Shown here piece after piece: positions 4,555-50,865 of a stretch of 64,000 nt of DNA. The DNA comes from Thermotogota bacterium. Its GTDB lineage: Bacteria; Hydrothermota; Hydrothermia; LBFQ01. A model generated the notes under the pieces. It did no database searches. It worked only from the letters and a program-made list of their open reading frames with translations, and was not told the DNA's origin. Made by a program: the position numbers and the translations under genes. Location: NCBI GenBank assembly GCA_013153965.1, contig JAADDJ010000010.1:17443-81442 (forward strand). The letters are read 5' to 3'. Position 1 is the first letter of the stretch, and each line of letters starts with the position of its first letter.

Positions 4555-5151
4555 TTAGATCTTGAAGTCGTCCTCTGTCAGTCCCACATTAACCTTCAGA
4601 TTCCTGTACTTCACCGTCCTGACCACGTTCCCCTCGGCATCGTAGTCGGTTATCATGACAGGGAGCATGCTCTGGGAATCTATCCAGTACTTGGCCTTCA
4701 CGGCCCCGTAGTTCTTGGTGGGATCAAGTTTCTGCTCAAGTATATAGACCTTCCGCCCGAATAGGGTTCCCTCCGAGACGAAGCGAGCATCATCGCTCAA
4801 ACGTTTGACGAACCACGGTATATGGCTCTCGTATATCCTATGGCCCACGGGGGAGCGCAGACGCCTATCGTCGGGCGACAACCAGAGCTTGAGGGGACCC
4901 TTCTTGACCCTGACCTTCCTCTTCTCGGGATGATATACGGCCACACCGCCCCTGTTGGCCCCCCTTATCACCTTCATGTATATGAAGCCGGGACGCATGT
5001 ACTTCTGGATGTACTCCTTGTATTCCAACTTGCCGTCCTTGTAGGTTTTGGACTCCATCGTGGCCGTGTAATCCTTCAGAGCCGCCTCCGCCTTCTTCAC
5101 GTCGGCCACCAACTCCTTACCACTCAAACTCAAGAGAGTGATCCACAGCAT
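4555..5151 (-). CDS. Secreted LolA-like / outer-membrane lipoprotein-sorting-fold protein
   Basis: N-terminal signal peptide MLWITLLSLSG; size and beta-rich composition consistent with the LolA-like family; weak. Confidence 0.4.
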   Translation of the reverse strand: MLWITLLSLSGKELVADVKKAEAALKDYTATMESKTYKDGKLEYKEYIQKYMRPGFIYMKVIRGANRGGVAVYHPEKRKVRVKKGPLKLWLSPDDRRLRSPVGHRIYESHIPWFVKRLSDDARFVSEGTLFGRKVYILEQKLDPTKNYGAVKAKYWIDSQSMLPVMITDYDAEGNVVRTVKYRNLKVNVGLTEDDFKI

Positions 5152-5769: not shown

Positions 5770-6297
5770 CTAATTCCGCCGAATATGGGCGAGGAGCATC
5801 TCGGCCACCCTCCGGAACATCTCCTCACGATTCAGAGGAGTTAGCAGTATTGGGTCGTAAGTCTCCCTTATACGACGCACGAGAGGATGGACGTCCCTTA
5901 TGGGGATGGTGGCGACGATGTCCCTCTCTCCGCCGAAGACGATGTCCTCCACGAGACGGGCGAATCTCTCGCTCAGGAGCTCCATCTTCCCGATCTCATC
6001 TATCACCAGGATCTTGGAGCATTGGGGGAGGCAGGCCTCCAGCATGGGCACGACGAGGCGCTCAAACCCCTCCACATCCACGCCGTACCTGCCCACCCTC
6101 CACGGCGATGTTATATTCACGTGGGCGAGAAGTGCCTCCCGACCGTCGGTGGTGATTATCTTGAATCCCACCCTCCTCCCGCCCTCGCGCACCTCCTCCG
6201 TCCAGAAGCCGACGAACCGACCGGTGGCGAGATTGACGAGTCGCTTTACGAGGGTGGTCTTCCCCACACCCGGCTTTCCCGTAATGAAGACCTTCAT
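5770..6297 (-). CDS. Nucleoside-triphosphatase, THEP1/NTPase_1 family
   Basis: Walker A GKPGVGKTT at N-terminus, Walker B ILVIDEIGKME; ~175 aa, typical of THEP1-type NTPases. Confidence 0.7.
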   Translation of the reverse strand: MKVFITGKPGVGKTTLVKRLVNLATGRFVGFWTEEVREGGRRVGFKIITTDGREALLAHVNITSPWRVGRYGVDVEGFERLVVPMLEACLPQCSKILVIDEIGKMELLSERFARLVEDIVFGGERDIVATIPIRDVHPLVRRIRETYDPILLTPLNREEMFRRVAEMLLAHIRRN

Positions 6298-6351
6298 TCG
6301 GCCGAAAGTTTAAGCTGGAACCGACCCATCTGCGGGCGTATAATTTACGCT

Positions 6352-6939
6352 ATGGCCGAGTACAAGGTGGTGGAAAGTTTGACCCTGCCGGCCAAAGGTA
6401 CGGCCATAATCGTGGTGGATATGCAGAACGATTTCGTGGACCCGAAGGGGGCCCTCTTCGTACCCGACGCCCCCAAGACGATCCCGGCCATATCGGCCCT
6501 GATTGAGAGGGCGCGGGCGTCCGGTGTGCCCATCTTCTACACTCAAGATTGGCACGACGAGGAGGACCCGGAGTTTGAGATATGGGGGAGGCATGCCGTG
6601 GCGGGAACTTGGGGTGCCGAGATAGTGCCGCCCCTCGCCCCCAAAAAGGGTGATACCGTCGTGAGGAAGTTGAGGTACGATGGATTCTACGGTACCCCCT
6701 TGGACCATCTCCTGCGCCTCAAGGGCGCCCAGAACCTCGTTCTGGTGGGTACGGTCGCGAACATCTGCGTGTTGCACACGGCCGGATCGGCCGCCCTGAG
6801 GTGGTACAAGGTTGTCGTCCCCATGGACGGCGTTTCCGCCCTCAACGAGGGCGATTATCACTTTGCCCTTCGCCAGATAGACTTCCTCTACAGAGGGAGC
6901 GTGGTAAAGAGCGTTCAAGGTATAAGTTTCGTCCGGTAA
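6352..6939 (+). CDS. Isochorismatase-family cysteine hydrolase (nicotinamidase/PncA-like)
   Basis: IIVVDMQNDFVDPKGALFV and VLVGTVANICVLHTA (catalytic Cys) motifs; real start at ATG 6352; upstream part of track ORF is antisense to the NTPase. Confidence 0.8.
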   Translation: MAEYKVVESLTLPAKGTAIIVVDMQNDFVDPKGALFVPDAPKTIPAISALIERARASGVPIFYTQDWHDEEDPEFEIWGRHAVAGTWGAEIVPPLAPKKGDTVVRKLRYDGFYGTPLDHLLRLKGAQNLVLVGTVANICVLHTAGSAALRWYKVVVPMDGVSALNEGDYHFALRQIDFLYRGSVVKSVQGISFVR

Positions 6940-6940
6940 A

Positions 6941-9900
6941 GTGCTCTGGGTGCTTCTAAACTACGAGGACTACTTTACGAGGCGGTTGATGGAGGAGACC
7001 TTCTCGTACGGCTACACCTACGACTCCAACAACGTCTATGGACTCTACAACTACTACGGGACGGAGGACACCGTCAAGGTCTTCTCAATAGACGAATTCT
7101 TCGGCCTCAACCTCATGTCCTACCTTCGCAAGACGACGGTAAAGGCCTATGACACGTCGGCGACGGAGGCCCTATCCGGACTCGTCCCGGATATAGAGGT
7201 TCCCGTCCAGATACCCAAGAGATGGCGGTTTCTGGGCGAGGGTGTGAGCAAGATAACCCTAAGGGGTGAGCAGACCATATCCATAGGCGGCTCCAAGGAG
7301 GATCTCCTCAGCCCCGAGGGCCAGAACCTCAACAGCCAGTATCAGGTGAGCAACATCCCGAGCATAAACATGAAGCAGACCTTGAACGTGGTCATAACGG
7401 GCCAGATAACGGATCGCCTGAAGGTGGAGGTGCGCCACAACTCCGAAGCCCTGCAGACGGATCAGGACCGGATACTCCTCGCGTACACCGGGACGGATGA
7501 CGATATAGTCCAGAGTCTCCAAGCCGGAGATATAGACGTTTCGGACTTTCCGAGTACCACCTACTCCTCCTTAGGTGCTGGGGCGGGATTGCTCGGATTG
7601 AAGGGCAGGTTCGCTCTCGGCCCCGCCAAGATCGTGGCGGTGGCAACGAAGGAGAGGGGTCAGAGCCAGACCAAGATATTCCGGGCTCAGTCGCAGGTGA
7701 TAACGGATACCCTCTGGGGGAGCGACTACATACGGGAGACCTTCTTCATGCTTCCCATAGCCCCCTTCATACCCCCCGGCGAGGATCCCAACGACTATCG
7801 GATTGAGAATCTGCTCCTCTTCTACAAGCCCCTCGTCCCGACGGGGAACACCTTCGTCTATGGTAAGGCCTATCACCTGATGGACACTTTGGGACTTATA
7901 ACCGACGACACCACCCGCTGCTTCGCGTCGGGCAGATTCGTCCAGATGGACCCCTCATCCTACCGGTTCTACACGGGGAGTGTGGTCCAGATAACGGATC
8001 CCCCGAACGCGTCCCTCTGGTGGCTGGGGGCCGTGTATAGGCTCGTGAAGTCGGATGGGAGCGACACGATAAACGTCGGGTACATCCCCCCCGCTCCGGA
8101 CAGCACGGATCCCATACGGATGCTCCTTATCAAGCTGGACAAGATGCGCTCCTCCGACACATCCCTCACGTGCGCCCTGAACATCAATCTTCTGGAGCTG
8201 AAGAACATATACTCACTTCCCTACCAGTTGGATACGAGCGTCAAGGACCTGACCTTCAACATATACCGCGACAACCCCACGACGAACGATTCACTGGCGC
8301 AGGACGGCATCAAATTCACGACGCTCCTCGGCGTTGACCCCGAGGGCGACGGCAAGATAAACGACATAGTCCCCGTGATCATCAACGGGGATACGGTGAA
8401 TTTCCGAGTTCTTGAGATATTCCCCGAGGGAGGGGGATACCTGATATTCCCGAAGTTCTGGCCCTTCGCCGACACCGTCCTGAGGGATAGGGACAGCATC
8501 ATATATCTGATGGACAGGGAGTACTGGAGGGAGTACCACCGGGAGAAGTACTACATGGTCTTCACATTCCGGAAACCCCAGAAGTTCATAAATCTGGGTG
8601 GGACCTTGATAGACGGCTCGGTTGAGGTCTTCAGGAATGGCCAGAAGCTTCAGGAGGGTAAGGACTATCGGGTGGATTACTCAAACGGCATCGTCCATTT
8701 CCTAATCCCAATAAACGAGACGGACGAGATACGTATAAACTACCGCTCCCTCGGCGCCCCTCTCGCCGAGAGCAGGGCCATTCTGGGTTTGGCCACCACC
8801 ATGGACCTGTCCGAGAACTTCAAGGTCACCCTCAACTACCTGTCAAAGTCCAGAGCATCCGCGTATCCGAGACCTCAATTCGGAAGCGAGCCCAACAGCT
8901 ACTCGGTCTTGGACGCCGGATTGACCTTCAACCACACCTTGGACTATCTCAACCGCTTCCTGAACTCCCGCACCCCCCTCAGCTTGGAGAAGAAGAGCGA
9001 ATTCACCTTGAACGGGGAGGTTGCGAGGTCCTTCCCCAACCCCAGCACGGTGGGCGAGGCTTACATAGACGATTTTGATAGGTTTGACGATAATCTGGAC
9101 AATTTGATCTGGGAGTACAGGAACTGGATACACGGCTCCCTGCCGTACCTTCCCGACTCCGTGAGGGCCGACACCGCCGTCCTCGCCAACCGCCAATCTT
9201 GGTACTCGGACCGTATGGCCGTGAAGGGGGACATACTGGAGATAACGGACGAGCAGGAGCGCACGGACCCCGTGCGGGTCATGAGGCTGATAGCCGAGCC
9301 CCGCATAGAGGGGGTCCCGAACTTCATGACCATAATGATGGGCTACAAGGAGGAGCAGAACTACAAGGAGAAGGAGTACGTGGAGGTATTCGCCCGAGGG
9401 CACGGGATAATCATATTTGACGTGGGAACCAACATACCGGAGGATGCGTACGTGAGGGCCTGCGACGGCAACTTCTACGGCCTCGGCCAGCTCAACACCG
9501 AGGACTTGAATCTGGACAACCAATTCACCGAGACCCGTGAGGACGTCGGTTTGGATGGCGTTCCCGGGGAGGATGGGACCTGCAATCCCGGCTCCGGCGA
9601 CTGGGGGAACGACGACTACACCATATCGGACCCGGCGAACGCGGACCCCTTCCTGATAAACAGGTACGAGGGAAATCACCACGAGGACTCGGAGGACCTG
9701 AACGGCAACTTCCAGCTGGACATGGCGGAGAACTTCTACTCCTACGTGATAGACCTGGACACCATGACACCCATATCCGAGAAGAACGGTTGGAAGCTCT
9801 TCAGGATCCCCCTGCCCAAACCCACCCGGGTCTATGGCAAACCGGCGCTTGACAGGATAGCATACTTCCGCCTGACGTGGTACGGATTTACCCGGACGGA

Positions 9901-12490
9901 CACCCTCTTCATATACCGGCTGGGGATAGGTGGAAGCCCTTGGATAAACGAGGGAGTCAAGGGGGATACCACGGATACGACCCAGTATCTGGCCATAAAC
10001 TTCGTCAGCAAGAAGACCACACCGGGATACGAGTACCCGCCGGGCGTTCAGGATAAACTCACATACGAGGGCATATCCATGGCCCTTCAGGACGAGGGAG
10101 CCATGTCCCTGCTCTACTCCGTCAATCCCGGGGCCTACGCTCTGGCCCGCAAGAACGTCGGTACCAAGTACAACTTCATAAACTACCGGAGCATATCCCT
10201 GTGGGTACAGGACAGGTCCGGCAGCTCTCCCACCATAGTTGTGAGATTCGGGAAGGATTCGCTCAACTTCTACGAGTACAGGCAGAGGATAACGGGCGAA
10301 GGTTGGCAGGCGGTCAAATTCTTCTTGGACAGTTTAGTCCTCTTCAAGGGGGACGAAACGTCGCCGGATTACAGGAGCAACGGGAGGTACGGTGTCAGGG
10401 GGAATCCGAGCATATTTGAGGTTGAATTCTTCTGGGTAGGTGTCGCCAACGACTCCTCCGAGCGGATAAGCGGGGAGCTCTGGGTGAATGAGCTTCGCCT
10501 GACGGACCCCGTTAAGACATCCGCCTACGCCGGGAACGTCTCCATGAGGTTCAACATATCCGACCTGTTTCAGCTTACGGGCAACGGTACGTTTGAGCAG
10601 ATGAACTTCGCCAGGTCGGCCACGAATCTTAGCCAGTACCAGACCCTCCGCTTCAATCTGAACACCACCTTCAACATCCACAGGCTGTTCCCCTCCTCTT
10701 GGGGCCTAAGCATTCCCTTCAACTTTAGCCACAACCTGAGCCAGAGGGTTCCCAAATTCAAGCCCGGTCTGGACGTTCCCATAACCTCGCCGGAGGAGAG
10801 ACGGTCCCTCACGGCCTTCTCCCGCTCAACCGCCTACGGCATATCCTTCTCCAAGAGGGGCTCAACCGGATGGCTGGGTAAGTGGTTCTTGGACCCGTGG
10901 AAACTCTCCCACAGCATGAGATACGACCTATCCAACATACCCGGTCAGAGCTACGACTCCACCGTGTCCCAGAATTACGGCATCCGGTACTCCTACAGGC
11001 CCACGGGCGAGTTCATGTTGGGCAATCGCCGGTACCGCTACCTTCCCACCTCCTACTCAATCTCCTACAACTACAGCCTGACCACCTCCTTCTCCAGAAC
11101 CATGGGTGCCATAACGCGCAGGACGGACAAGTACGGCAACCTCTCCGCCAGCATAAACTACGATCCCATCCCCGGCATATTCGGATTCGGGTACAGCATA
11201 TCCCGAAAGGGGGACTATCGCTACGACGAGCTCTTGAAGAGCTACGCGGACTCCCTTCTCGGGTTTGAGAGCCAATTCAGGGAGAACTTCAACTCCTCCC
11301 TGAACTTGAGGCGCCTGTGGATATTCTCCCCGTCCCTTACGTACCGACACGGGTACGCCGAGGACCGAAAACCCGAGAACGCCCTCACGGGCTTTGACGT
11401 CAGGGATATAAACGAGGACCTCAGTGTGGGCTTCACCCTGAACGTGGAGCAGGGGAGGCTGCTGTCGCAGATAGGGAAATTGAGGGATGAGAGTAAGGAT
11501 ACATCCCTATCCACGGCTGGGGCACTCCACACCTTCCTCTACGGCTTGGACAAGCTGGCCAACATATGGAGGAATACCCGCTTCTCCTACAGCTTCTCCC
11601 GCACATCCAGCTTCTACGCCGCCATGGGAAGGGCCAGTTGGGCCTACCGCTTCGGTTTGGCCCTTGATCCCGGCGTGATAATAACCGACACCCAACGCTC
11701 CAACTGGAGGGAGACCCACTCCTACGACCTATCCACGGACCTGAACATCTCCGCGCGCCTGCGACTCTCTCCGAGATTCAACTACAGCCGGGACCTCACG
11801 GATAACCAGACCCAGCGGATACTTCGGGAGACTTGGAGATTCCCGGACTTCGTCCTGAGCGGACGACCGATACCCATCATCTCCCGCTGGAAGTTCATCT
11901 CATCGTCGGACTTCACCTTCAACTATTCGGACGAGAGGAGCACCACATCCTATCCCCTCTGGGTTCCCACGGGTACGGACACCGTGAGACCGAGGACAAC
12001 GCGCTTCACGAGGACCATAAACCTGTCTCCGAATTTCACCCTCAAGAACGGTACGGGTCTGAACCTCTCCTACACATACACCAACTCCCGAACTCACGAG
12101 ATATACTCCTCCATGAACATAGAGCGAATATCCGTTCAGAACACCTACGAGATAGGTCTGAGCCACACCTTTAGCGGATTCTCCGGCATCCGATTGCCGT
12201 GGAAGAAGGATAGGCTCCTCTCCCTAAAGAACCGTCTGACCCTCTCGGCCAAGTACTCCGCGAGCAGCGGCACGGACATAACCATAAACCACACCCTCGC
12301 GGACTTCGGGAACAGCGTGGATACCCTCTCAAGGCGGAAGAACAACAACCTGACGGTGAGTGCCACCTACCAGTTCAGCAACGCCGTGGATGCGACCTTC
12401 AGCTACATATACAACTTGAGCGGCGACTACGAGGGGGGAATATTCACCCGCAAGAATCAGTTGAGGGCGGACATCCGCATAAGGTTCTGA
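6941..12490 (+). CDS. Giant outer-membrane beta-barrel protein, SprA/Sov (T9SS translocon)-like
   Basis: 1849 aa; S/T/N/Y-rich alternating beta-strand composition throughout; C-terminal aromatic residue (..IRIRF) typical of OM beta-barrels; two T9SS-CTD cargo genes in the same window; GTG start 1 nt after preceding stop; no signal peptide. Confidence 0.55.
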   Translation: MLWVLLNYEDYFTRRLMEETFSYGYTYDSNNVYGLYNYYGTEDTVKVFSIDEFFGLNLMSYLRKTTVKAYDTSATEALSGLVPDIEVPVQIPKRWRFLGEGVSKITLRGEQTISIGGSKEDLLSPEGQNLNSQYQVSNIPSINMKQTLNVVITGQITDRLKVEVRHNSEALQTDQDRILLAYTGTDDDIVQSLQAGDIDVSDFPSTTYSSLGAGAGLLGLKGRFALGPAKIVAVATKERGQSQTKIFRAQSQVITDTLWGSDYIRETFFMLPIAPFIPPGEDPNDYRIENLLLFYKPLVPTGNTFVYGKAYHLMDTLGLITDDTTRCFASGRFVQMDPSSYRFYTGSVVQITDPPNASLWWLGAVYRLVKSDGSDTINVGYIPPAPDSTDPIRMLLIKLDKMRSSDTSLTCALNINLLELKNIYSLPYQLDTSVKDLTFNIYRDNPTTNDSLAQDGIKFTTLLGVDPEGDGKINDIVPVIINGDTVNFRVLEIFPEGGGYLIFPKFWPFADTVLRDRDSIIYLMDREYWREYHREKYYMVFTFRKPQKFINLGGTLIDGSVEVFRNGQKLQEGKDYRVDYSNGIVHFLIPINETDEIRINYRSLGAPLAESRAILGLATTMDLSENFKVTLNYLSKSRASAYPRPQFGSEPNSYSVLDAGLTFNHTLDYLNRFLNSRTPLSLEKKSEFTLNGEVARSFPNPSTVGEAYIDDFDRFDDNLDNLIWEYRNWIHGSLPYLPDSVRADTAVLANRQSWYSDRMAVKGDILEITDEQERTDPVRVMRLIAEPRIEGVPNFMTIMMGYKEEQNYKEKEYVEVFARGHGIIIFDVGTNIPEDAYVRACDGNFYGLGQLNTEDLNLDNQFTETREDVGLDGVPGEDGTCNPGSGDWGNDDYTISDPANADPFLINRYEGNHHEDSEDLNGNFQLDMAENFYSYVIDLDTMTPISEKNGWKLFRIPLPKPTRVYGKPALDRIAYFRLTWYGFTRTDTLFIYRLGIGGSPWINEGVKGDTTDTTQYLAINFVSKKTTPGYEYPPGVQDKLTYEGISMALQDEGAMSLLYSVNPGAYALARKNVGTKYNFINYRSISLWVQDRSGSSPTIVVRFGKDSLNFYEYRQRITGEGWQAVKFFLDSLVLFKGDETSPDYRSNGRYGVRGNPSIFEVEFFWVGVANDSSERISGELWVNELRLTDPVKTSAYAGNVSMRFNISDLFQLTGNGTFEQMNFARSATNLSQYQTLRFNLNTTFNIHRLFPSSWGLSIPFNFSHNLSQRVPKFKPGLDVPITSPEERRSLTAFSRSTAYGISFSKRGSTGWLGKWFLDPWKLSHSMRYDLSNIPGQSYDSTVSQNYGIRYSYRPTGEFMLGNRRYRYLPTSYSISYNYSLTTSFSRTMGAITRRTDKYGNLSASINYDPIPGIFGFGYSISRKGDYRYDELLKSYADSLLGFESQFRENFNSSLNLRRLWIFSPSLTYRHGYAEDRKPENALTGFDVRDINEDLSVGFTLNVEQGRLLSQIGKLRDESKDTSLSTAGALHTFLYGLDKLANIWRNTRFSYSFSRTSSFYAAMGRASWAYRFGLALDPGVIITDTQRSNWRETHSYDLSTDLNISARLRLSPRFNYSRDLTDNQTQRILRETWRFPDFVLSGRPIPIISRWKFISSSDFTFNYSDERSTTSYPLWVPTGTDTVRPRTTRFTRTINLSPNFTLKNGTGLNLSYTYTNSRTHEIYSSMNIERISVQNTYEIGLSHTFSGFSGIRLPWKKDRLLSLKNRLTLSAKYSASSGTDITINHTLADFGNSVDTLSRRKNNNLTVSATYQFSNAVDATFSYIYNLSGDYEGGIFTRKNQLRADIRIRF

Positions 12491-13351
12491 CTATCGCAGG
12501 ATCTCAGGTTTGACCCTATAGACCCTTCCCTGACCCTCCGCATCAACGACGACGAATCGGAAGCCCGCCTCCTCCCAATCCCCATCCATGATCCAGTGGA
12601 AGAGGGGCGTACCCTCGTATATGACGTTCTTCCGTACGTCGTACAGTCTCGGAATCTTATCCTTCCCCCCATAGATGACGAAGCGCCCATCCGGGGAGGC
12701 GGAGACGAATTCAACCCCGTAAGTTCCGTGGGAGATCATCCCCATCTCCCTCCAGCCGTCGGTTGAGTATATGTATATGCCGTCATCCGTGGCCACCAGA
12801 AGCCTCCTGCCATCCTTCGTCCAGTGGATATCCGCCACCGGGGAGTTGAACTTCAGGGTCCTGTAGGCTACCAGAGTGTCCAAGAACCAGACATCAACGA
12901 ATCCGTCGCACGTACCCGTAGCAAACCGCCTTCCGGAAGGGTCCAAGGCCACCGACGTTATGGGACATCCGCGCCGGTTGGGTACCTCCACGACGGTATC
13001 GGAGTGGGGCCTGAGAAGCAGAAGACCCTTATTCTGAACGGCCAAGATCCGTCCGTCGTTTAGCCACACCAGGTCGTTGGTCATGGACGTGTTGCGATAC
13101 ACGTAGAGCCTCCCGCCGGCTATGGAGTATATGCCCAGAGCGCTCCCACCGACGGCCAGACGGCTCCCCGATGGGGAGACCCTGACCACGTTCGGATGGA
13201 CCATCCCCAAGGGGAACTCCGCCTTCTTCTGCGCCCCCGTATCCGACCAGACGTATCCTCTCCCGCGCATATCCACCGTGGCTATGGCCCTAACGCCCCA
13301 ATCCACCGCCGAGAGAGGCGCCCCGTGGGAGAATACCCAGAGAAGCTCCAT
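12491..13351 (-). CDS. WD40/beta-propeller repeat protein
   Basis: Repeated ~40-aa units with GxxDGxxxxW/ D-x-W patterns (e.g. DGFVDVW, DGIYIYSTDGW); start overlaps upstream stop as TGATG. Confidence 0.55.
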   Translation of the reverse strand: MELLWVFSHGAPLSAVDWGVRAIATVDMRGRGYVWSDTGAQKKAEFPLGMVHPNVVRVSPSGSRLAVGGSALGIYSIAGGRLYVYRNTSMTNDLVWLNDGRILAVQNKGLLLLRPHSDTVVEVPNRRGCPITSVALDPSGRRFATGTCDGFVDVWFLDTLVAYRTLKFNSPVADIHWTKDGRRLLVATDDGIYIYSTDGWREMGMISHGTYGVEFVSASPDGRFVIYGGKDKIPRLYDVRKNVIYEGTPLFHWIMDGDWEEAGFRFVVVDAEGQGRVYRVKPEILR

Positions 13352-17757: not shown

Positions 17758-19881
17758 TTAACGCACCACCACCTTCAGGACCTCGTCATCCACCTTGACG
17801 AAATACACCCCACCGCTCAACCTGACGGGAACCTTCACCCATCCGACCACACCCTTTAGATCCCGTCGCAGGACGGAGCGACCATCAACCGAGAATATCT
17901 CCAACCTCACGTCCCGAACGAAGGGCACCTTCAGGAGGACGTACCCGTCGTCGTAGGATATGACAACTCCGCCCACATCCTCCGGTCGCTCGGCCTTGGC
18001 GGTGGTGGGACACGATATGGTGGTGTCCAGCTCGTACATGATGGCGTCGGCTATGACGACGGTTCCGTCGGGTGCGTCGTCGTACATGACCACGTGGAGG
18101 GTATCGGCGCAGACGCTGTCAAGGAATATCCAACCGGTGTCCGTGCTCTCACCGTACTGGCTAACATAGACGTCCCGAGGGCCGACATCGGCGTATATAC
18201 GATAATGGACGGATGTGCTGCGGTTCGTCCCCTTTCGTACCCAAGCCCAAACCTTATAGCCGGAGTAGCATCCGAGGGGAGAGTACCACACGGAGGAGTC
18301 GGCCGTCCCGCCTACGGTGGCGTACCTGTAATCCCCGTTGTATCCGCTGTAGGAGCTTAGGGTCCATGTTCCGAAGCCCGTCCATCCGGGATCCCCGTCA
18401 TCTACTATGAGGTCCCCGCAGACTGCTCCGCCTCTCCAAGACCATTTAACGGCATCAAAGGCTATGCGATCCCCGCTTATGTCCGAGGAGTCCAGAAGGA
18501 TGACGTAGCCGTAGGACCCCGCCGCGAAGTTGTACGTCCCCAAGGACACCCACTCACCGGAGTAGAGACCCTGATTCACCCATACCGTATCGGTTCCGTC
18601 CTCATGCACTATTATGTAGGGCACGTGGGCATCGTAATCGGCGCCCACGGGGATGTGCGCGAAGACCTCGTAGGGTCCGGCGTAGGGGAGGTTGGGCGTC
18701 CATCTGGCCCAGTTGGCCACGCCGTTCCAAGAGCCCGTGTGCCACATGTGGCCGTAGGCGCCGTAGCCGTTGGCCGAGTCGTAGTACCAGTACTGGCTGG
18801 GCCCGTACTTGCGGAATCCCTGCGAAAGCTCATCCACTATGGTGTCGGCCGGAGGCAGTCCCTCCACCAGAACGCTGTAGTAGGCCCAATCCCAGTAATC
18901 GCCGGGGTCGGTGTGGGTGGCCCCCGGAACCTCAACGTGCCCTATTATGTGGTCCCTGTCGGCCGGGAAGCCGAAGGTTATGGAGGCCATCCGACTGATG
19001 TACGCCGACTTCCTGTAGAGGGTATCGGTGTACCAGCCGTTCTCGCTGACGTACCCCTCGTGCTCCAAGCCGATTGACTGGGTGTTGTAGGTCCAGTTCC
19101 CCGCGTGCCAGGCTATGTCCTTGTGGCACACCATCTGGGTAGCCTCCCCAAGAGGGGCCCCGTCGGAGGAGTTGTACTCCGAATTTATCACGTAGTGGGC
19201 CGAGACGTTGGCGGCGGAATTCTGGAACCACGAGATGGCTCCGTAATAGGTACCTTCGGTCGTGTGAATTATGATGTAGTATATCGGGTAGTCGCTCGGG
19301 CGGTTGGCGGCGGTGTAGTTGGATGGGTCGGCCGGAACCCACTCTTCCACCTCGGGGAATTCCGGACCCGGAGGACACGCGTTGAGACCTTCGGAGGCTT
19401 CGGAGGCCAAATCCTTCGGAATCTCCACCTCCGGATGGGCGCGGGTTGAGAGGATGGGAAACTCAAGGCCTGAGCGGTAAAGGGCCAGAATATCGCGGGC
19501 GAATATCTCCCTCGCACCTTCCGGAGCGTACATCTTCAGAGCGCATACCAGCTCTCCGGAGCACAGGTCAAGGTAGTGTTTCAGAAGGAGGGCGCCGGCC
19601 AATATACCAGCCCTGTCATCCTCCAGTATCTTGCTCTCGGGAATTCCGGAGACGGCTACCGCCTCATCTATGTGGAAGATACCCATCACCCCGTACTGGG
19701 GTAGGGCTTCGGCCTTGGGACTCGGTCCAACGCGATGGAACCGTGTCAATCTGTAGGATATGACCTTCAGGAGGTCGGAATCAACGCCGGTGATGGCCTG
19801 AGCCTCACCGAAGGCCCTCTCCAGCTCCCTCAAACGGGCGAGGGATGAAGCATCCGGACCTGAAAGCAGAAGGAGAAGCAT
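17758..19881 (-). CDS. Secreted N-acetylmuramoyl-L-alanine amidase (Amidase_2/PGRP domain) with T9SS C-terminal sorting domain
   Basis: Central Amidase_2 motifs (IIIHTTEG..., AHYVI, CHKDIAWHAGNWTYNTQSIGLEHEG); C-terminal ~80 aa beta-sandwich ending VYFVKVDDEVLKVVVR, typical of the Por/T9SS CTD. Confidence 0.7.
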   Translation of the reverse strand: MLLLLLSGPDASSLARLRELERAFGEAQAITGVDSDLLKVISYRLTRFHRVGPSPKAEALPQYGVMGIFHIDEAVAVSGIPESKILEDDRAGILAGALLLKHYLDLCSGELVCALKMYAPEGAREIFARDILALYRSGLEFPILSTRAHPEVEIPKDLASEASEGLNACPPGPEFPEVEEWVPADPSNYTAANRPSDYPIYYIIIHTTEGTYYGAISWFQNSAANVSAHYVINSEYNSSDGAPLGEATQMVCHKDIAWHAGNWTYNTQSIGLEHEGYVSENGWYTDTLYRKSAYISRMASITFGFPADRDHIIGHVEVPGATHTDPGDYWDWAYYSVLVEGLPPADTIVDELSQGFRKYGPSQYWYYDSANGYGAYGHMWHTGSWNGVANWARWTPNLPYAGPYEVFAHIPVGADYDAHVPYIIVHEDGTDTVWVNQGLYSGEWVSLGTYNFAAGSYGYVILLDSSDISGDRIAFDAVKWSWRGGAVCGDLIVDDGDPGWTGFGTWTLSSYSGYNGDYRYATVGGTADSSVWYSPLGCYSGYKVWAWVRKGTNRSTSVHYRIYADVGPRDVYVSQYGESTDTGWIFLDSVCADTLHVVMYDDAPDGTVVIADAIMYELDTTISCPTTAKAERPEDVGGVVISYDDGYVLLKVPFVRDVRLEIFSVDGRSVLRRDLKGVVGWVKVPVRLSGGVYFVKVDDEVLKVVVR

Positions 19882-19946: not shown

Positions 19947-20018
19947 GGCCCCATCGTCTAAGGGCTAGGACGCCACTCTTTCAAGGTGGTAGTGCGGGTT
20001 CGAGTCCCGCTGGGGCCA
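19947..20018 (+). tRNA. tRNA-Glu (anticodon UUC)
   Basis: Cloverleaf drawn by hand: acceptor GGCCCCA/TGGGGCC, D-arm GTCT-AAGGGCTA-GGAC, anticodon stem CCACT/GGTGG with loop CTTTCAA, T-arm GCGGG-TTCGAGT-CCCGC; no encoded CCA; followed by T7 run. Confidence 0.85.
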
Positions 20019-42884: not shown

Positions 42885-43481
42885 ATGCTCTGGATGCTCT
42901 CTTTTATGGACGTCTCCTTTGGGGTGGCCACGCGCATCCCCTTGGAGGATTACGCCAAATTCGTAGGGTACGGCGTTGGGGGAGAGGTGGGATTCCGCTA
43001 CTTCTTTACGGACCTCTTCGGCGTGGGACTGAAGGCGGGTGGATACTACCACTTCCAGAGGCTCGCGAAGGATTCGGTGGGCGGCGTATGGTACAAGCAG
43101 AACACTCAAGCCAACGTCTTCCCAGCGAGCCTAAATCTGGTGATGAACTTCTATCTGGCCGAGGGGGTGTCGCTGATGGTCTCTGTAGGAGGGGGTGGGA
43201 ACTTCTCCCTCTACACCTACGACCGCAGGGTGGGAGTCTATGACAGTGCCTCCGCCTCTTGGAATGTCAGGGAGGAGGAGGGAAACTACAAGGTGGGAGG
43301 CTACCTGATAAACTTTGAGGCCGCCTTCCGCATGACCGACTTTGACATATTCATGGGGGTCAATATCCTCCAGACCGAGATAAACCGGGTTGATATGCTG
43401 GAGGGTAAGGAGACGATTGATAAGGGAGCCTACCCGGCGTTGTACATCGGGACCAGGTACTTCATAAAGTTCGGCGTATGA
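42885..43481 (+). CDS. Small outer-membrane beta-barrel protein (OmpA-N/porin-like)
   Basis: Alternating hydrophobic beta-strand pattern with G/Y-rich turns; C-terminal aromatic (..FIKFGV). Confidence 0.5.
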   Translation: MLWMLSFMDVSFGVATRIPLEDYAKFVGYGVGGEVGFRYFFTDLFGVGLKAGGYYHFQRLAKDSVGGVWYKQNTQANVFPASLNLVMNFYLAEGVSLMVSVGGGGNFSLYTYDRRVGVYDSASASWNVREEEGNYKVGGYLINFEAAFRMTDFDIFMGVNILQTEINRVDMLEGKETIDKGAYPALYIGTRYFIKFGV

Positions 43482-45535
43482 TCCTGCTCCTCGCCGAGGT
43501 AATCTTCAGGGGAGGTTTCCTTGAGTACTTTCCTGACAGCGGCCTGGTGATCCTATACGACAGCGCGTACGTGAGGACCGACGACGGCACCGAGCTCTGG
43601 GCCGACACCATAAAGTTCTGGCGCAAGGTTCAGGTGGTGGAGGCCTCGGGCAACTTTACCCTCAAGACGGCGGAGACCAAAATCACGGGCAAATACCTGA
43701 AGTACAACCTCCTGCGTCAGACCGGAATAGCCAGCAAGAGCCGCACCTACGTTGAGAAGGGTTGGATAGTGGGGGATACGGTATATAAGGTCTCCGAAAA
43801 CAGCATATACACCACCAACGGATACTTCACGACCTGCGAGCTGCCCCGCCCCCACTATCGTTTCGCCTCCAAGAGGATGAGGGTGCTCAAGGGGGACCTG
43901 GCCGTGGTGAAACCTCTCGTCCTCTACCTCAGGGATATACCCGTCCTGTACGCCCCCTTCTGGTTCATGCCGGCGGGAAAGGAGCGCTCCTCCGGCTTTC
44001 TCCCCCCCTCGGTGGGCAGCAGTACCCGGGATGGGCTCTACATCCGCAACTTGGCCTTCTATCTGGCCATTGACAACTTTCAGGACCTCACTCTCTTTGC
44101 GGACATAATTGAGCGTAGGGGCGTGCGCTTCGGAGCCGACTACAGGTACAACATATACAAGAGTCTGCAGGGAGGATTTACGGGCACCTACGCGTACGAC
44201 CTCGCCGAGGGTGGGAACGTTAGACGGTGGAGTTTGAAGGGGAACCACTCCCAAACCCTTCTGGGGTTTGATATGAACGCCCACGCGGACTTCGTGTCGG
44301 ACTCCAGATACTTCCAAGACTACGCGGAGGTACCCGACCAGTGGATTCAGAACGAGCTCGTCTCCTACCTGACCCTCCGGAGGACCACGCGTCTCGGTCT
44401 CCTATCTCTAAACCTCTACAACCGCTACGACCCCATCCGCGATATCACCCGCAGGACCCTCCCCGAGGTTTCCTTCAGCATGCTCCCTTTAAACGCCCTC
44501 GGCCTATCCCTGTCCAACTCCTTCAACCTCCGGAGGGAGAGGACGGATTCGGCATCCTCCAGCATGGAGCACCGCTTCGCGGCCACCTCCCACGTGCTGA
44601 ACACCACCTACAGCCTCCTCTACCTGACCACCTCCCCCTCGGTCCACCTCAACACATCCTTCAAGGACTCGGTATTCTCCAAGAGGTACGGTCTAACCCT
44701 GCCTCTCTCTACCACCCTATACGGCGTATCCCTCTTCGGGCTGGGACCCGTGAGGAAGTTCCGCCACATCCTAAAGCCCACAGTCTCCTACTACTACGAG
44801 AGGGACGACCTCACCGGCGAGAGGAAGGGGATAACACTATCGTTGGACAACACCCACGAGGGTAAAATTCGCCGAGATACGACGTCGGAGGTCAAGACAC
44901 TCCTCCAGTGGTCCGCCTCCACCAGCTATATCTTCTCGGACACGCTGGAGGGGAAACCCCTACGCTACCACTTCACCCCCATCACCATAACGGCGCGCAC
45001 CTCCCCATACCGTTGGGTGTCGGTGGTGGCATTCGGCTCCTACGACCACGTTGAGGGACGACCCGCATCCGCCCAGCTCATCGTCAATCTCGGCCGTTTC
45101 AACCTGAATCGGATTTTGGGCGGAGAGGCGACACGGGAGGATACTGCCGAGATGGATACGACCAAGGACACGGTGATGACGGAGGAGGAGCTGGTTGAGG
45201 CCAACCGCCCTAAGCCCAAACCTTGGACCTTCGGCCTCTCCTACTCGTACTCCTTAAGCGCCTACGGGCAGCCTCCCCAGAACGTCTTCCGATTCGGAAT
45301 ATCCGGCAGTCCGACGCCCAAGTGGTTCATAGATTACTCATTCACGTACGATATGACGAACCGCAGGTATCTGGACCAGACCCTCCGGGTCTCCCGGGAC
45401 CTACACTGCTGGCAGCTGGAGGCCCGCTGGTCTTGGTTCGGGGGGTACTCAACCTACGACGTGCGCATATACGTCAAAGCCATTCCGGAGATAGCAATAA
45501 AGCGGGGAGTCTTGGACATCTTTCTACCCCGATAG
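43478..45535 (+). CDS. lptD: LPS-assembly outer-membrane protein LptD (OstA family)
   Basis: OstA N-domain then barrel; conserved TTCELPRPHYRFASKRMRV region; ATGA overlap with the preceding OMP gene. Confidence 0.8.
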   Translation: MILLLAEVIFRGGFLEYFPDSGLVILYDSAYVRTDDGTELWADTIKFWRKVQVVEASGNFTLKTAETKITGKYLKYNLLRQTGIASKSRTYVEKGWIVGDTVYKVSENSIYTTNGYFTTCELPRPHYRFASKRMRVLKGDLAVVKPLVLYLRDIPVLYAPFWFMPAGKERSSGFLPPSVGSSTRDGLYIRNLAFYLAIDNFQDLTLFADIIERRGVRFGADYRYNIYKSLQGGFTGTYAYDLAEGGNVRRWSLKGNHSQTLLGFDMNAHADFVSDSRYFQDYAEVPDQWIQNELVSYLTLRRTTRLGLLSLNLYNRYDPIRDITRRTLPEVSFSMLPLNALGLSLSNSFNLRRERTDSASSSMEHRFAATSHVLNTTYSLLYLTTSPSVHLNTSFKDSVFSKRYGLTLPLSTTLYGVSLFGLGPVRKFRHILKPTVSYYYERDDLTGERKGITLSLDNTHEGKIRRDTTSEVKTLLQWSASTSYIFSDTLEGKPLRYHFTPITITARTSPYRWVSVVAFGSYDHVEGRPASAQLIVNLGRFNLNRILGGEATREDTAEMDTTKDTVMTEEELVEANRPKPKPWTFGLSYSYSLSAYGQPPQNVFRFGISGSPTPKWFIDYSFTYDMTNRRYLDQTLRVSRDLHCWQLEARWSWFGGYSTYDVRIYVKAIPEIAIKRGVLDIFLPR

Positions 45536-49341: not shown

Positions 49342-50865
49342 TCATCTAACCATCACGCGCACATACCCTCCGTCCATCTCAATCAGGTACATCCCTGATC
49401 TCAACGGAATGAACCCCTCGCCCACCTTCAGGAGCCTGCCATCTACGGTGAATATCCTGACCCTCCGGTCCACCTCCACGCCGCCATCCATCACCCTCAA
49501 GCGGGAAGGGACCTCCCTCCGCTCCGATACGGCCGTAAGGAGATACCCGTCAAACCAAACGCGATCCTCCGCGTACTCCCTGTAGGCGACGCATCCTCCG
49601 CCCAGGTTGTAGCAGTAATCCACCCGCGCCCCGAATTGGGTGGTTCCGTTGTGGTCGTTTATCGTTATCAGGCTGTCCCAGCCGGTGGCGGATGCGGAGT
49701 GCGCGTACATAACGCTGTCCCACGATGCCCCCACGAAGGTGGCCACGAATCTGAAGGATGAGATGTGCCTATCCCTATGAACGTACGGATAGGCCATGTA
49801 GTTCCCCGAGGGATAGGCGAAGTTGGTGGGAGGGAAAGGCGAGGGGGATCCCCACGTGGCCCCGCCGTCGGAGGATGTGATGTAATGCACGTCCCACACG
49901 TTGGTACTCACGTGTCTGTTGGCCCACAGGGCCACCACCTCCTGCGAAGAGGAGGCACCGGTACCGGCCGTTATTGAGACCTGACGGGCCGTATCGGGAA
50001 GGGCCACAACGGATATGTTGGAGGCGGAGATGCTCGGGAGGTCAAAGGTTATCAGCCACAGGCTCGTATCCCCCCTAACGTACGCCTGATAGCCCCTACC
50101 GCTGTCGGAGAGATATACCGACGTCCAGAGGGTGCTGTCGTTGGCCAACAGCATGCTCCAAGTCAGACCCGAATCGGTTGATATCCCCCTGACGACTGCC
50201 CCGGCGTCGGTGATGTAAGTCATGGCCACATGACCATCGTTATTGACCGACAGAGCCGGGAGAGATGCGGTATCGGCGGAGGTAATCTCCACCCAATCCC
50301 AGGTGCTGAGATCCCGCCTTATCCTGCGCAGGTATATACCCTCTCCGACCGTCCAAGCCGACGAGGAGTCCCAATCCACGACCACGTATATCCAAGGATT
50401 GCTCCCGGGACCCACGGCTATATCCACCCCCCTCGGATCAAAGCGCCCGATCACGTCCATCTCGGGGATGCGCACCCAAGTTCTTCCGTCCGTGCTACTC
50501 CACATCTCCACAGTATCTTGACCGCTCGTATTTCCAGTCATGAGGACGGCTACGAAGATCTCGCCATCGTCGGCCACATCCATGGCGATACCTACGGGGA
50601 ACCCCGGGTAAGGCTCCCCTCTTACCAGAGCATCGCTGCCCCACAGCGGGGTAAATGGAGCGTAGGCCCCCTCTCTCTCCTCCGGAATCTCTCCCGAGGG
50701 GGGTAGGGGATGATACCCCATATCGCTCACGGGGTCGGGGAGGGCGCGTATGACGTTGGCTCTCCTATGGTCGTCCCCGATGAAGGATATGCTCTTGGCA
50801 CCTTGACGTGCCACATCGCCGGCATCGGCGATTCCGTTCGCGTTTATATAGAAGACTATCCACAT
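49342..50865 (-). CDS. S/T/W/D-rich beta-propeller-like protein with T9SS C-terminal sorting domain
   Basis: C-terminal ~80 aa ending LIEMDGGYVRVMVR, matching the CTD pattern of the amidase at 17758; body has repeated SxDGGxTW-type blades (BNR/sialidase-like); no clear signal peptide. Confidence 0.55.
   Translation of the reverse strand: MWIVFYINANGIADAGDVARQGAKSISFIGDDHRRANVIRALPDPVSDMGYHPLPPSGEIPEEREGAYAPFTPLWGSDALVRGEPYPGFPVGIAMDVADDGEIFVAVLMTGNTSGQDTVEMWSSTDGRTWVRIPEMDVIGRFDPRGVDIAVGPGSNPWIYVVVDWDSSSAWTVGEGIYLRRIRRDLSTWDWVEITSADTASLPALSVNNDGHVAMTYITDAGAVVRGISTDSGLTWSMLLANDSTLWTSVYLSDSGRGYQAYVRGDTSLWLITFDLPSISASNISVVALPDTARQVSITAGTGASSSQEVVALWANRHVSTNVWDVHYITSSDGGATWGSPSPFPPTNFAYPSGNYMAYPYVHRDRHISSFRFVATFVGASWDSVMYAHSASATGWDSLITINDHNGTTQFGARVDYCYNLGGGCVAYREYAEDRVWFDGYLLTAVSERREVPSRLRVMDGGVEVDRRVRIFTVDGRLLKVGEGFIPLRSGMYLIEMDGGYVRVMVR

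Follow-up and report, generated by a model that had tools for sequence, protein, structure and literature searches.

A compact SprA/Sov homolog with a minimal leader in a thermophilic WOR-3 lineage

How could a giant outer-membrane (OM) β-barrel be exported if its gene seems to encode no signal peptide? The question is raised by an open reading frame (ORF) in a 64,000-nucleotide stretch of DNA, hereafter the window, deposited under the name Thermotogota bacterium (GenBank assembly GCA_013153965.1, contig JAADDJ010000010.1, positions 17,443 to 81,442 of the forward strand). The ORF lies on the plus strand at 6941..12490 (coordinates include the stop codon) and encodes 1849 aa. A preliminary description had presented it as an SprA/Sov-like barrel, and thus as the candidate translocon of a type 9 secretion system (T9SS), that begins with GTG 1 nt after an isochorismatase-family gene and ends in IRIRF; the ORF list and the sequence agree with that account of its position, length, start, spacing and end. 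With a probability of about 0.75, sequence comparison leads us to regard it as an intact and probably functional SprA/Sov OM translocon gene of a thermophilic WOR-3 bacterium (‘Pyropristinus’/Caldipriscus-related), which would be translated by reinitiation and whose product would carry a hydrophobic stub as its only leader.

The first step is the identity of the protein, which belongs to the SprA/Sov family of giant β-barrels. The NCBIfam model TIGR04189 (‘T9SS outer membrane translocon Sov/SprA’) matches it in four stretches with 327.7 bits, the cutoff being 200 (E 1.3e-97), and the Pfam model PF14349 (SprA_N) with 83.2 bits, the cutoff being 27. The only match of a phmmer search of the PDB was the SprA of Flavobacterium johnsoniae (6H3I/6H3J; E 4.5e-25), and its five collinear blocks run from query residues 142-271, opposite residues 169-294 of 6H3I_A, to query residues 1149-1450, opposite residues 1471-1762; the pairing of residue 142 with residue 169 puts the N-terminal offset at ~27 residues. 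When a profile of ten members of the clade to which the window belongs (loci labelled WOR-3, Candidatus (Ca.) Caldipriscus and, once, ‘Thermotogota’) was aligned by hhalign with one built from twelve Bacteroidota SprA proteins, the match had a probability of 100% and an E value of 6e-86 over 1395 columns (query 19-1477 against template 82-1828), with 22% identity at the profile level. From query residue 19 onward this alignment pairs ETFSYGYTYDS with the conserved SIVSKYTYDP of Bacteroidota, so that the YTYD motif stands at about residue 25 in the query versus about residue 70 in Bacteroidota.

Structure prediction leads to the same family. Two overlapping SprA fragments (fragment size at most 1200 aa) were modelled with AlphaFold2 (AF2), and each model was searched against the PDB with Foldseek. 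The C-terminal 750 aa (pLDDT 84.2, pTM 0.62) fold into ~25 long β-strands in the model and retrieve F. johnsoniae SprA first (8gl8_A/6h3i_A; E 4.5e-21, TMq 0.63), followed by the MtrB family (E 3e-6, TMq 0.29). The N-terminal 1135 aa (pLDDT 68.8) retrieve 8gl8_A with an E value of 3.9e-44. The long strands of both fragments total ~35-40, which is compatible with a 36-strand barrel and is not a strand count. Because the profile, phmmer, hhalign and Foldseek searches all point to SprA, the distinct giant barrel family that the preliminary description had left as an alternative is excluded, both fragments strongly matching F. johnsoniae SprA only, and the SprA assignment that it preferred has been borne out by the two approaches it proposed, namely SprA hidden Markov models (HMMs), which score above their cutoffs, and structure prediction.

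The second step is whether the gene is complete at its 5' end, since the preliminary description had suggested that an N-terminal region including the signal peptide was split off, lost or frameshifted. In the sprA frame, a TAA at 6923-6925 leaves only five codons before the GTG, none of them a start codon (GTT TCG TCC GGT AAA), and two more in-frame stops lie 12 and 21 codons upstream, so that the longer alternative start that had been considered is not possible. A scan of one genome per species returned 34 distinct loci with SprA relatives. Of the 14 clade loci, 13 have the same length, an in-frame stop 1-13 codons upstream and a start that adjoins or overlaps the stop of the isochorismatase-family gene, which rules out upstream starts in the window and in all 13 loci with an intact 5' end. 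The junction takes the form TAA-N-GTG in the subclade of the window and that of an ATGA/GTGA overlap in the Caldipriscus subclade. Eleven database orthologs, publicly named ‘hypothetical protein’, have 1807-1852 aa, 45-74% identity and the same short N-terminus, apart from one (P0004; L and P numbers are our own handles for the sequences compared) that was called at Met17, and the mean column identity in the clade alignment is 69% over the full SprA length.

Several other ways of reading the 5' end were rejected. A downstream start at Met17, as in the public annotation of P0004, is at odds with the invariance of D10 and F12 and with the absence of Met17 from the Caldipriscus subclade. Stop-codon reassignment or readthrough is contradicted by the use of all three stop codons to end genes and by the mixed stops found upstream of short-leader genes. 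A programmed frameshift fusion of sprA with the isochorismatase-family gene can be set aside because the frame offset between the two differs between subclades, and the upstream protein itself has no leader. For horizontal transfer of sprA there is no compositional signal, the GC content being native, and a separate ORF for the SprA N-terminus is not needed, since the alignments show just ~20-40 leader or linker residues to be absent. The GTG at 6941 is the real sprA start, and the product begins with VLWVLLNYEDYFTRRLMEE, written (M)LWVLLNYEDYFTRRLMEE with the initiator as Met, and ends in ...LRADIRIRF*.

One clade member departs from this pattern: in Ca. Caldipriscus sp. T1.2 (L011:3334-8514) a gap follows the isochorismatase-family gene and the sprA ORF begins at the equivalent of about residue 105. 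Because every other clade member is intact, this is probably an assembly frameshift and not biology. The disrupted old assembly nevertheless belongs to the case for taking sprA as an N-terminally truncated or split remnant, produced by fission, frameshift or assembly error, whose signal peptide and N-terminal part are lost or encoded elsewhere; so do the lack of a canonical signal peptide, the abutment of the start on the preceding gene and the lack of any protein entry with at least 90% identity to the window SprA, although LptD and an amidase of the same contig have such entries. We consider such a remnant very improbable, since the start, length and junction are shared by 13 independent assemblies spanning 45-74% identity, the protein retains the YTYD motif and every block after it in the order of F. 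johnsoniae SprA, mean column identity is 69%, what is missing relative to outgroups is confined to the n-region of the signal peptide and a portion of its h-region, and the varying frame offset speaks against a programmed fusion. The intact gene is thus the reading we retain, and the relatives, which share the length and the start, show no recognisable signal peptide that an upstream start would restore.

If nothing substantial has been lost at the N-terminus, why is the protein so short? With anchors taken from phmmer and hhalign, it is ~550 aa shorter than F. johnsoniae SprA, and the deficit is distributed: the N-terminus accounts for ~43 aa, the stretch near residues 309-391 for 75, that from residue 737 to residue 1149 for 170, and the part beyond residue 1450 for 240. 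The preliminary description was right that the protein is about 25% shorter than canonical SprA/Sov, whereas the N-terminal loss that it had considered is not supported; the compact size comes from shorter inserted regions spread along the protein. Because the SprA proteins of other WOR-3, TA06 and Zixibacteria metagenome-assembled genomes (MAGs), which have canonical signal peptides, also measure 1835-1967 aa, a compact SprA is the normal size outside Bacteroidota and not a peculiarity of the window gene, in keeping with the suggestion, also made at the outset, of a reduced variant in a deep-branching lineage. Such a compact and presumably thermostable SprA delimits the dispensable parts of the translocon and would be attractive for structural work.

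The SprA relatives of the clade come from WOR-3 (Pyropristinus/Caldipriscota) MAGs of hot springs and hydrothermal systems. Ca. Caldipriscus has been described from 75-84 °C with a genome of ~1.5 Mb (PMC11696919), and the WOR-3 strain that was first brought into culture is a non-motile diderm (PMC12285271). As to the name under which the window was deposited, its LptD and Amidase_3 proteins have 100%-identical public entries labelled ‘MAG: Thermotogae bacterium’, probably a mislabel for WOR-3. The window SprA has no public protein entry above 74% identity and seems not to have been annotated as a protein when the source record was made.

The third step is the leader itself. The N-terminus (M)LWVLLNYEDYF has no K/R before residue 14 and acidic residues from position 9, so the preliminary description was correct in finding no canonical signal peptide; five consecutive hydrophobic residues do follow the initiator. 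Across the clade, the leader consists of M plus 5-8 hydrophobic residues (LWVLL, IWIFI, IILLAY, IFLFAY) without K/R, and its sequence varies (VIWIFIN, VVWLLLS, MIILLAY, MIFLFAY) while its hydrophobic character is conserved. The strict hydrophobic run has a median of 6, and the clade leaders depart from the canonical Sec type I pattern of a charged n-region, an h-region of ~7-15 residues and small residues at -3/-1. AF2 assigns residues 1-13 a pLDDT below 50. Outgroup SprA proteins have a canonical signal peptide followed by a mature N-terminus of the form YSL(Y/V)(D/E)PP...DYSLG, and because MAFFT places these signal peptides over window residues 1-11, the clade proteins seem to keep only the tail of the h-region. 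We propose that, of the ancestral SprA signal peptide, M and 5-8 uncharged hydrophobic residues are all that is left. A point that weighs against a working signal is that five hydrophobic residues are fewer than the usual functional h-region of Sec signal peptides.

SprA is not alone in this, a point that the preliminary description did not make. All 7 window proteins that are expected to be exported and are not lipoproteins begin with M plus 3-5 hydrophobic residues and no charge, compared with 1 of the 45 other proteins (Fisher p = 6e-8); besides those listed in the table, short leaders occur on a LolA_like/DUF1571 protein (MLWITLLSLSG), an Amidase_3 protein (MLALVLSQWL) and a small OMP-like protein (MLWMLSFMDVSFG). 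None of the genes concerned can be extended, each being a maximal ORF preceded by mixed stop codons, and -10 boxes independently fix several of their start codons. The lipoproteins and membrane anchors of the window retain ordinary charged N-termini. LptD is an essential OM barrel, and its orthologs (P0094-P0103; L038:10001-12031), whose identity ranges from 100% to the 52% of Ca. Caldipriscus, share the start MI(L/P/N)LL(L)AE..F(R/K)GG, even though the upstream gene differs, being omp198 in the window and QueF in Caldipriscus; other probable periplasmic proteins of that Caldipriscus locus (L038) begin with MVLLFVGQ, MLSILIFS and MFWFLIST. The Amidase_3 orthologs of the clade keep the short leader as well, with uncharged h-regions of 10-13 residues in wider WOR-3/Hydrothermia and canonical signal peptides in other phyla. 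For SprA, LptD and Amidase_3, respectively, the first acidic residue lies at position 9, 8 and 14 in the clade, with no K/R before it, versus 30, 22 and 18 elsewhere, with 2-3 K/R (3 in the case of SprA).

Because the short leader is also present on LptD, amidases and a LolA-like protein, it points to a lineage-wide minimisation and not to a defect of SprA, and SprA is, to judge from these alignments, the most extreme case of a clade-wide reduction of export leaders. The reduction has limits. In a second low-GC WOR-3 group (P0104-P0118, 34% identity) the LptD leaders are very short too (MILFIVLQVD...), with gene callers disagreeing on the start, yet in WOR-3 MAGs of similarly low GC the SprA proteins still have a canonical signal peptide, which counts against a single trend and indicates that shortening was not uniform but depended on family and lineage within the phylum. 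That the clade as a whole has cut its non-lipoprotein export signals to uncharged stubs of 6-12 residues, implying relaxed or altered Sec targeting and proof-reading (prl-like or mature-domain-dominated), is a generalisation that we put forward tentatively, at less than even odds. If it were true, standard predictors would miss most of the WOR-3 secretome. Our literature search returned nothing on unusual signal peptides in WOR-3 and nothing on unusually short signal peptides that would apply to the lineage.

How, then, would the exported proteins of the clade cross the inner membrane? Most likely either the stub is still a minimal Sec export signal or export relies mainly on the mature domain; we reason in this way because LptD, the two amidases, the LolA-like protein and other envelope proteins carry the same kind of leader. 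In E. coli, prlA mutants export proteins with defective signal sequences, and mature-domain targeting signals are established. On that precedent the short hydrophobic N-terminus could be a neutral leftover rather than an export signal, with passage by a signal-peptide-independent route, for example mature-domain targeting combined with a relaxed prl-like SecYEG, or some pathway not yet known. The h-region of only five residues followed by acidic ones would fit, as would the lack of n-region charge anywhere in the clade, LptD included (MILLLAE). We find this quite unlikely, because the hydrophobicity of residues 2-7 is conserved while their sequence varies, as expected of a selected h-region, short leaders show a strong enrichment among exported proteins and do not occur in cytoplasmic ones, and the uncharged 10-13-residue h-regions of wider WOR-3 suggest gradual shortening of a working signal. 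A minimal Sec signal is most likely the inner-membrane route, given the conserved hydrophobicity, the enrichment of the leader on exported proteins and the intermediates in relatives; passage of that membrane is also the weakest step of our explanation. If functional, the uncharged leaders of the clade probe the lower limit of what Sec requires, and predictors would under-call exported proteins in WOR-3 metagenomes.

The fourth step concerns how a gene that starts 1 nt after another is expressed. The true start of the upstream isochorismatase-family gene is the ATG at 6352, a 350-aa ORF from 5887 being an over-extension, and the gene directly precedes sprA in 14 of 14 clade loci and in no outgroup locus. 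A strict scan for full sigma-70 -35/-10 pairs and for terminators found none around the junction. A custom scan found a TAnWAT box starting at -12 to -15 from the start codon of 24 of the 48 window genes, where ~0.16 would be expected; examples are the box at 6339-6344 and those upstream of 4555..5151(-), 17758..19881(-), 42885..43481(+) and 49342..50865(-). This excess argues for pervasive leaderless mRNAs and implies that about half of the window genes, those first in their operons, are made in this way, Shine-Dalgarno sequences being mostly absent. The TATAAT at 6339-6344 is likely the promoter of a leaderless bicistronic isochorismatase-sprA transcript.

The sprA gene has neither a TAnWAT box nor a Shine-Dalgarno sequence of its own, the junction sequence containing no Shine-Dalgarno at the sprA start, and for that reason it would be translated by reinitiation after the stop of the isochorismatase-family gene, within a leaderless two-gene transcript whose arrangement is fixed across the clade. 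Dependence on reinitiation would also account for the freezing of this unrelated pair, which all clade loci share although their flanking genes vary; the pair would then illustrate how leaderless transcription and termination-reinitiation coupling can lock unrelated genes together. In the Caldipriscus subclade (L001:8956-15424, L003:8941-15490, L039:8960-15439) the gene preceding the pair encodes an Rrf2-family regulator, and in the window a divergent P-loop NTPase gene (5770..6297, minus strand) lies upstream of the isochorismatase-family gene.

The last step is what the barrel does. By analogy with Flavobacterium, and because of its membership of the SprA/Sov family, the protein would act as a giant OM barrel through which proteins bearing a C-terminal domain (CTD) leave the periplasm. 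In F. johnsoniae, according to the current model, the capped barrel binds the cargo CTD in its interior along with loops of PorV and releases it by lateral opening, and a periplasmic N-terminal segment of SprA is gripped by a SkpA trimer (PMC10994853); residues 8-141 of the window protein may be the counterpart of that SkpA-binding segment. The two cargo proteins mentioned in the preliminary description correspond to the 707-aa and 507-aa proteins of the table, which are putative cargo, and they do share a ~70-aa tail (...IFSVDGR...GVYFVKV...KVVVR) resembling a T9SS type A CTD. Of the two tails, one gives an HMM match, which lies below threshold.

Several results weigh against the translocon role. 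TIGR04183 scores 18.8 bits on the tail of the 707-aa protein, below its cutoff of 23 (E 1.2e-3), and no HMM match was found for the tail of the 507-aa BNR-like protein. A profile of the tails found nothing significant in the PDB, where lipase 7PZJ gave the best match with its C-terminus (E 0.56); phmmer with the tail against 1.84e9 representatives returned just the ortholog and spurious β-repeat proteins. No other T9SS gene (porV, gldKLMN, sprE/porW, porU, porT) was found in the 64-kb window or next to the orthologs in their flanks, so that the check for core T9SS genes came back empty there. Since such genes usually lie far apart in a genome, their absence from 64 kb is uninformative. The CTD-like tails may represent a divergent WOR-3 CTD subfamily.

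These same results could be taken to mean that the SprA-family barrel no longer serves type 9 secretion here and has become, for example, a general OM pore or structural protein after loss of the T9SS. The absence of partner genes from the window and ortholog flanks and the sub-threshold CTD evidence would fit, as would the non-motility of the cultured WOR-3 strain (PMC12285271) and the outcome of our literature search, which found no report linking WOR-3 or related candidate phyla to the T9SS. We regard such a change of function as unlikely: conservation extends over the full length, covering the blocks homologous to the cap and cavity of F. johnsoniae SprA and the N-terminal motif, two exported proteins of the window share the type A CTD-like tail, one with a near-threshold TIGR04183 match, and the missing partner genes say little at the scale of 64 kb. 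A translocon for CTD-bearing proteins remains our preferred role, and it would mean that WOR-3, a thermophilic lineage outside Bacteroidota, has a bona fide SprA/Sov translocon.

Table 1. Coordinates of sprA, its parts and the other window features discussed in the text
Feature	Coordinates	Strand	Evidence or remark
sprA/sov homolog	6941..12490	+	TIGR04189, PF14349, phmmer 6H3I, hhalign
Minimal hydrophobic leader, residues 1-7, (M)LWVLLN	6941..6961	+	putative remnant of signal-peptide h-region
Conserved mature N-terminal region, residues 8-141	6962..7363	+	D10, F12, YTYDS (residues 25-29); invariant columns
First strong SprA homology block, residues 142-271 = F. johnsoniae SprA 169-294	7364..7753	+	phmmer domain 1
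SprA homology block, residues 556-737 = F. johnsoniae SprA 697-884	8606..9151	+	phmmer domain 2
Pfam SprA_N match, residues 1147-1275, GNPS...WVNELRL motif	10379..10765	+	Pfam, phmmer domain 5
C-terminal 750 aa, ~25 long β-strands, most of the barrel wall	10238..12487	+	AF2, Foldseek
β-signal-like end QLRADIRIRF, terminal Phe	12458..12487	+	F1849 invariant in the clade
Gene junction TAA-A-GTG	6937..6943	+	upstream stop TAA 6937-6939, A 6940, GTG 6941; 1 nt gap
Isochorismatase-family (PncA-like) gene, 195 aa, no export leader	6352..6939	+	PF00857 150.6 bits
TATAAT -10-like box	6339..6344	+	at -13, 7 nt upstream of the isochorismatase-family ATG
LptD, 685 aa, leader MILLLAEVIFRGG (MILLLAEVIF)	43478..45535	+	PF19838 111.9 bits
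Amidase_2 + Golvesin_C protein, 707 aa, leader MLLLLLSG, CTD-like tail	17758..19881	-	TATAAT box at -14
BNR-like protein, 507 aa, leader MWIVFYINANG, CTD-like tail	49342..50865	-	comparator, putative cargo

A few observations concern the surroundings of sprA. A 279-aa antisense ORF inside the gene (8843..9682, minus strand) is most likely a codon-bias by-product of a gene with 57% GC. At the 3' end, the sprA stop (12488-12490) abuts that of a convergent WD40/beta-propeller gene (12491..13351, minus strand) at zero intergenic distance, with no terminator-like hairpin between the two; gene packing is very tight window-wide, with many 4-nt overlaps. ARAGORN and Rfam detected a single RNA gene in the window, a tRNA-Glu(TTC) at 19947-20018 on the plus strand.

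Set beside the known translocons, F. johnsoniae SprA (6H3I/6H3J, 8GL6/8GL8) and Porphyromonas gingivalis Sov, the window protein shows collinear homology that begins at the YTYD motif near the N-terminus and extends to the strands at the C-terminus, has the same aromatic C-terminus and shares its window with two proteins bearing CTD-like tails. It differs in its host, a thermophilic WOR-3 and not a member of Bacteroidota, in the coupling of its translation to an isochorismatase-family gene and in the lack of a canonical signal peptide; PorV, Plug, PPI, SprE, SkpA and GldKLMN were not observed beside it in the 64-kb window.

Compared with Sec type I signal peptides, the leader of the clade is likewise N-terminal and hydrophobic, conserved in character, carried by proteins with exported homologs and absent from cytoplasmic ones. 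Unlike them, it has no positive n-region and an h-region of 5-8 versus about 7-15 residues, and in SprA it shows no evident AXA-like c-region, with acidic residues from position 9. The window protein also resembles the compact SprA proteins of other WOR-3, TA06 and Zixibacteria (L015-L026, P0012), candidate phyla related to the FCB (Fibrobacterota-Chlorobiota-Bacteroidota) group, which have the same size class and block structure at 25-27% identity and which, unlike the window protein, retain canonical signal peptides (e.g. MKQKIILLVNIVLIKFAVGYTA, ...LVLSFVLVTLSLVSSAGAYSL) and have no isochorismatase-family gene upstream. The compact SprA of the clade is a reduced variant of a known translocon, and what is chiefly new is that export leaders have been minimised throughout the clade.

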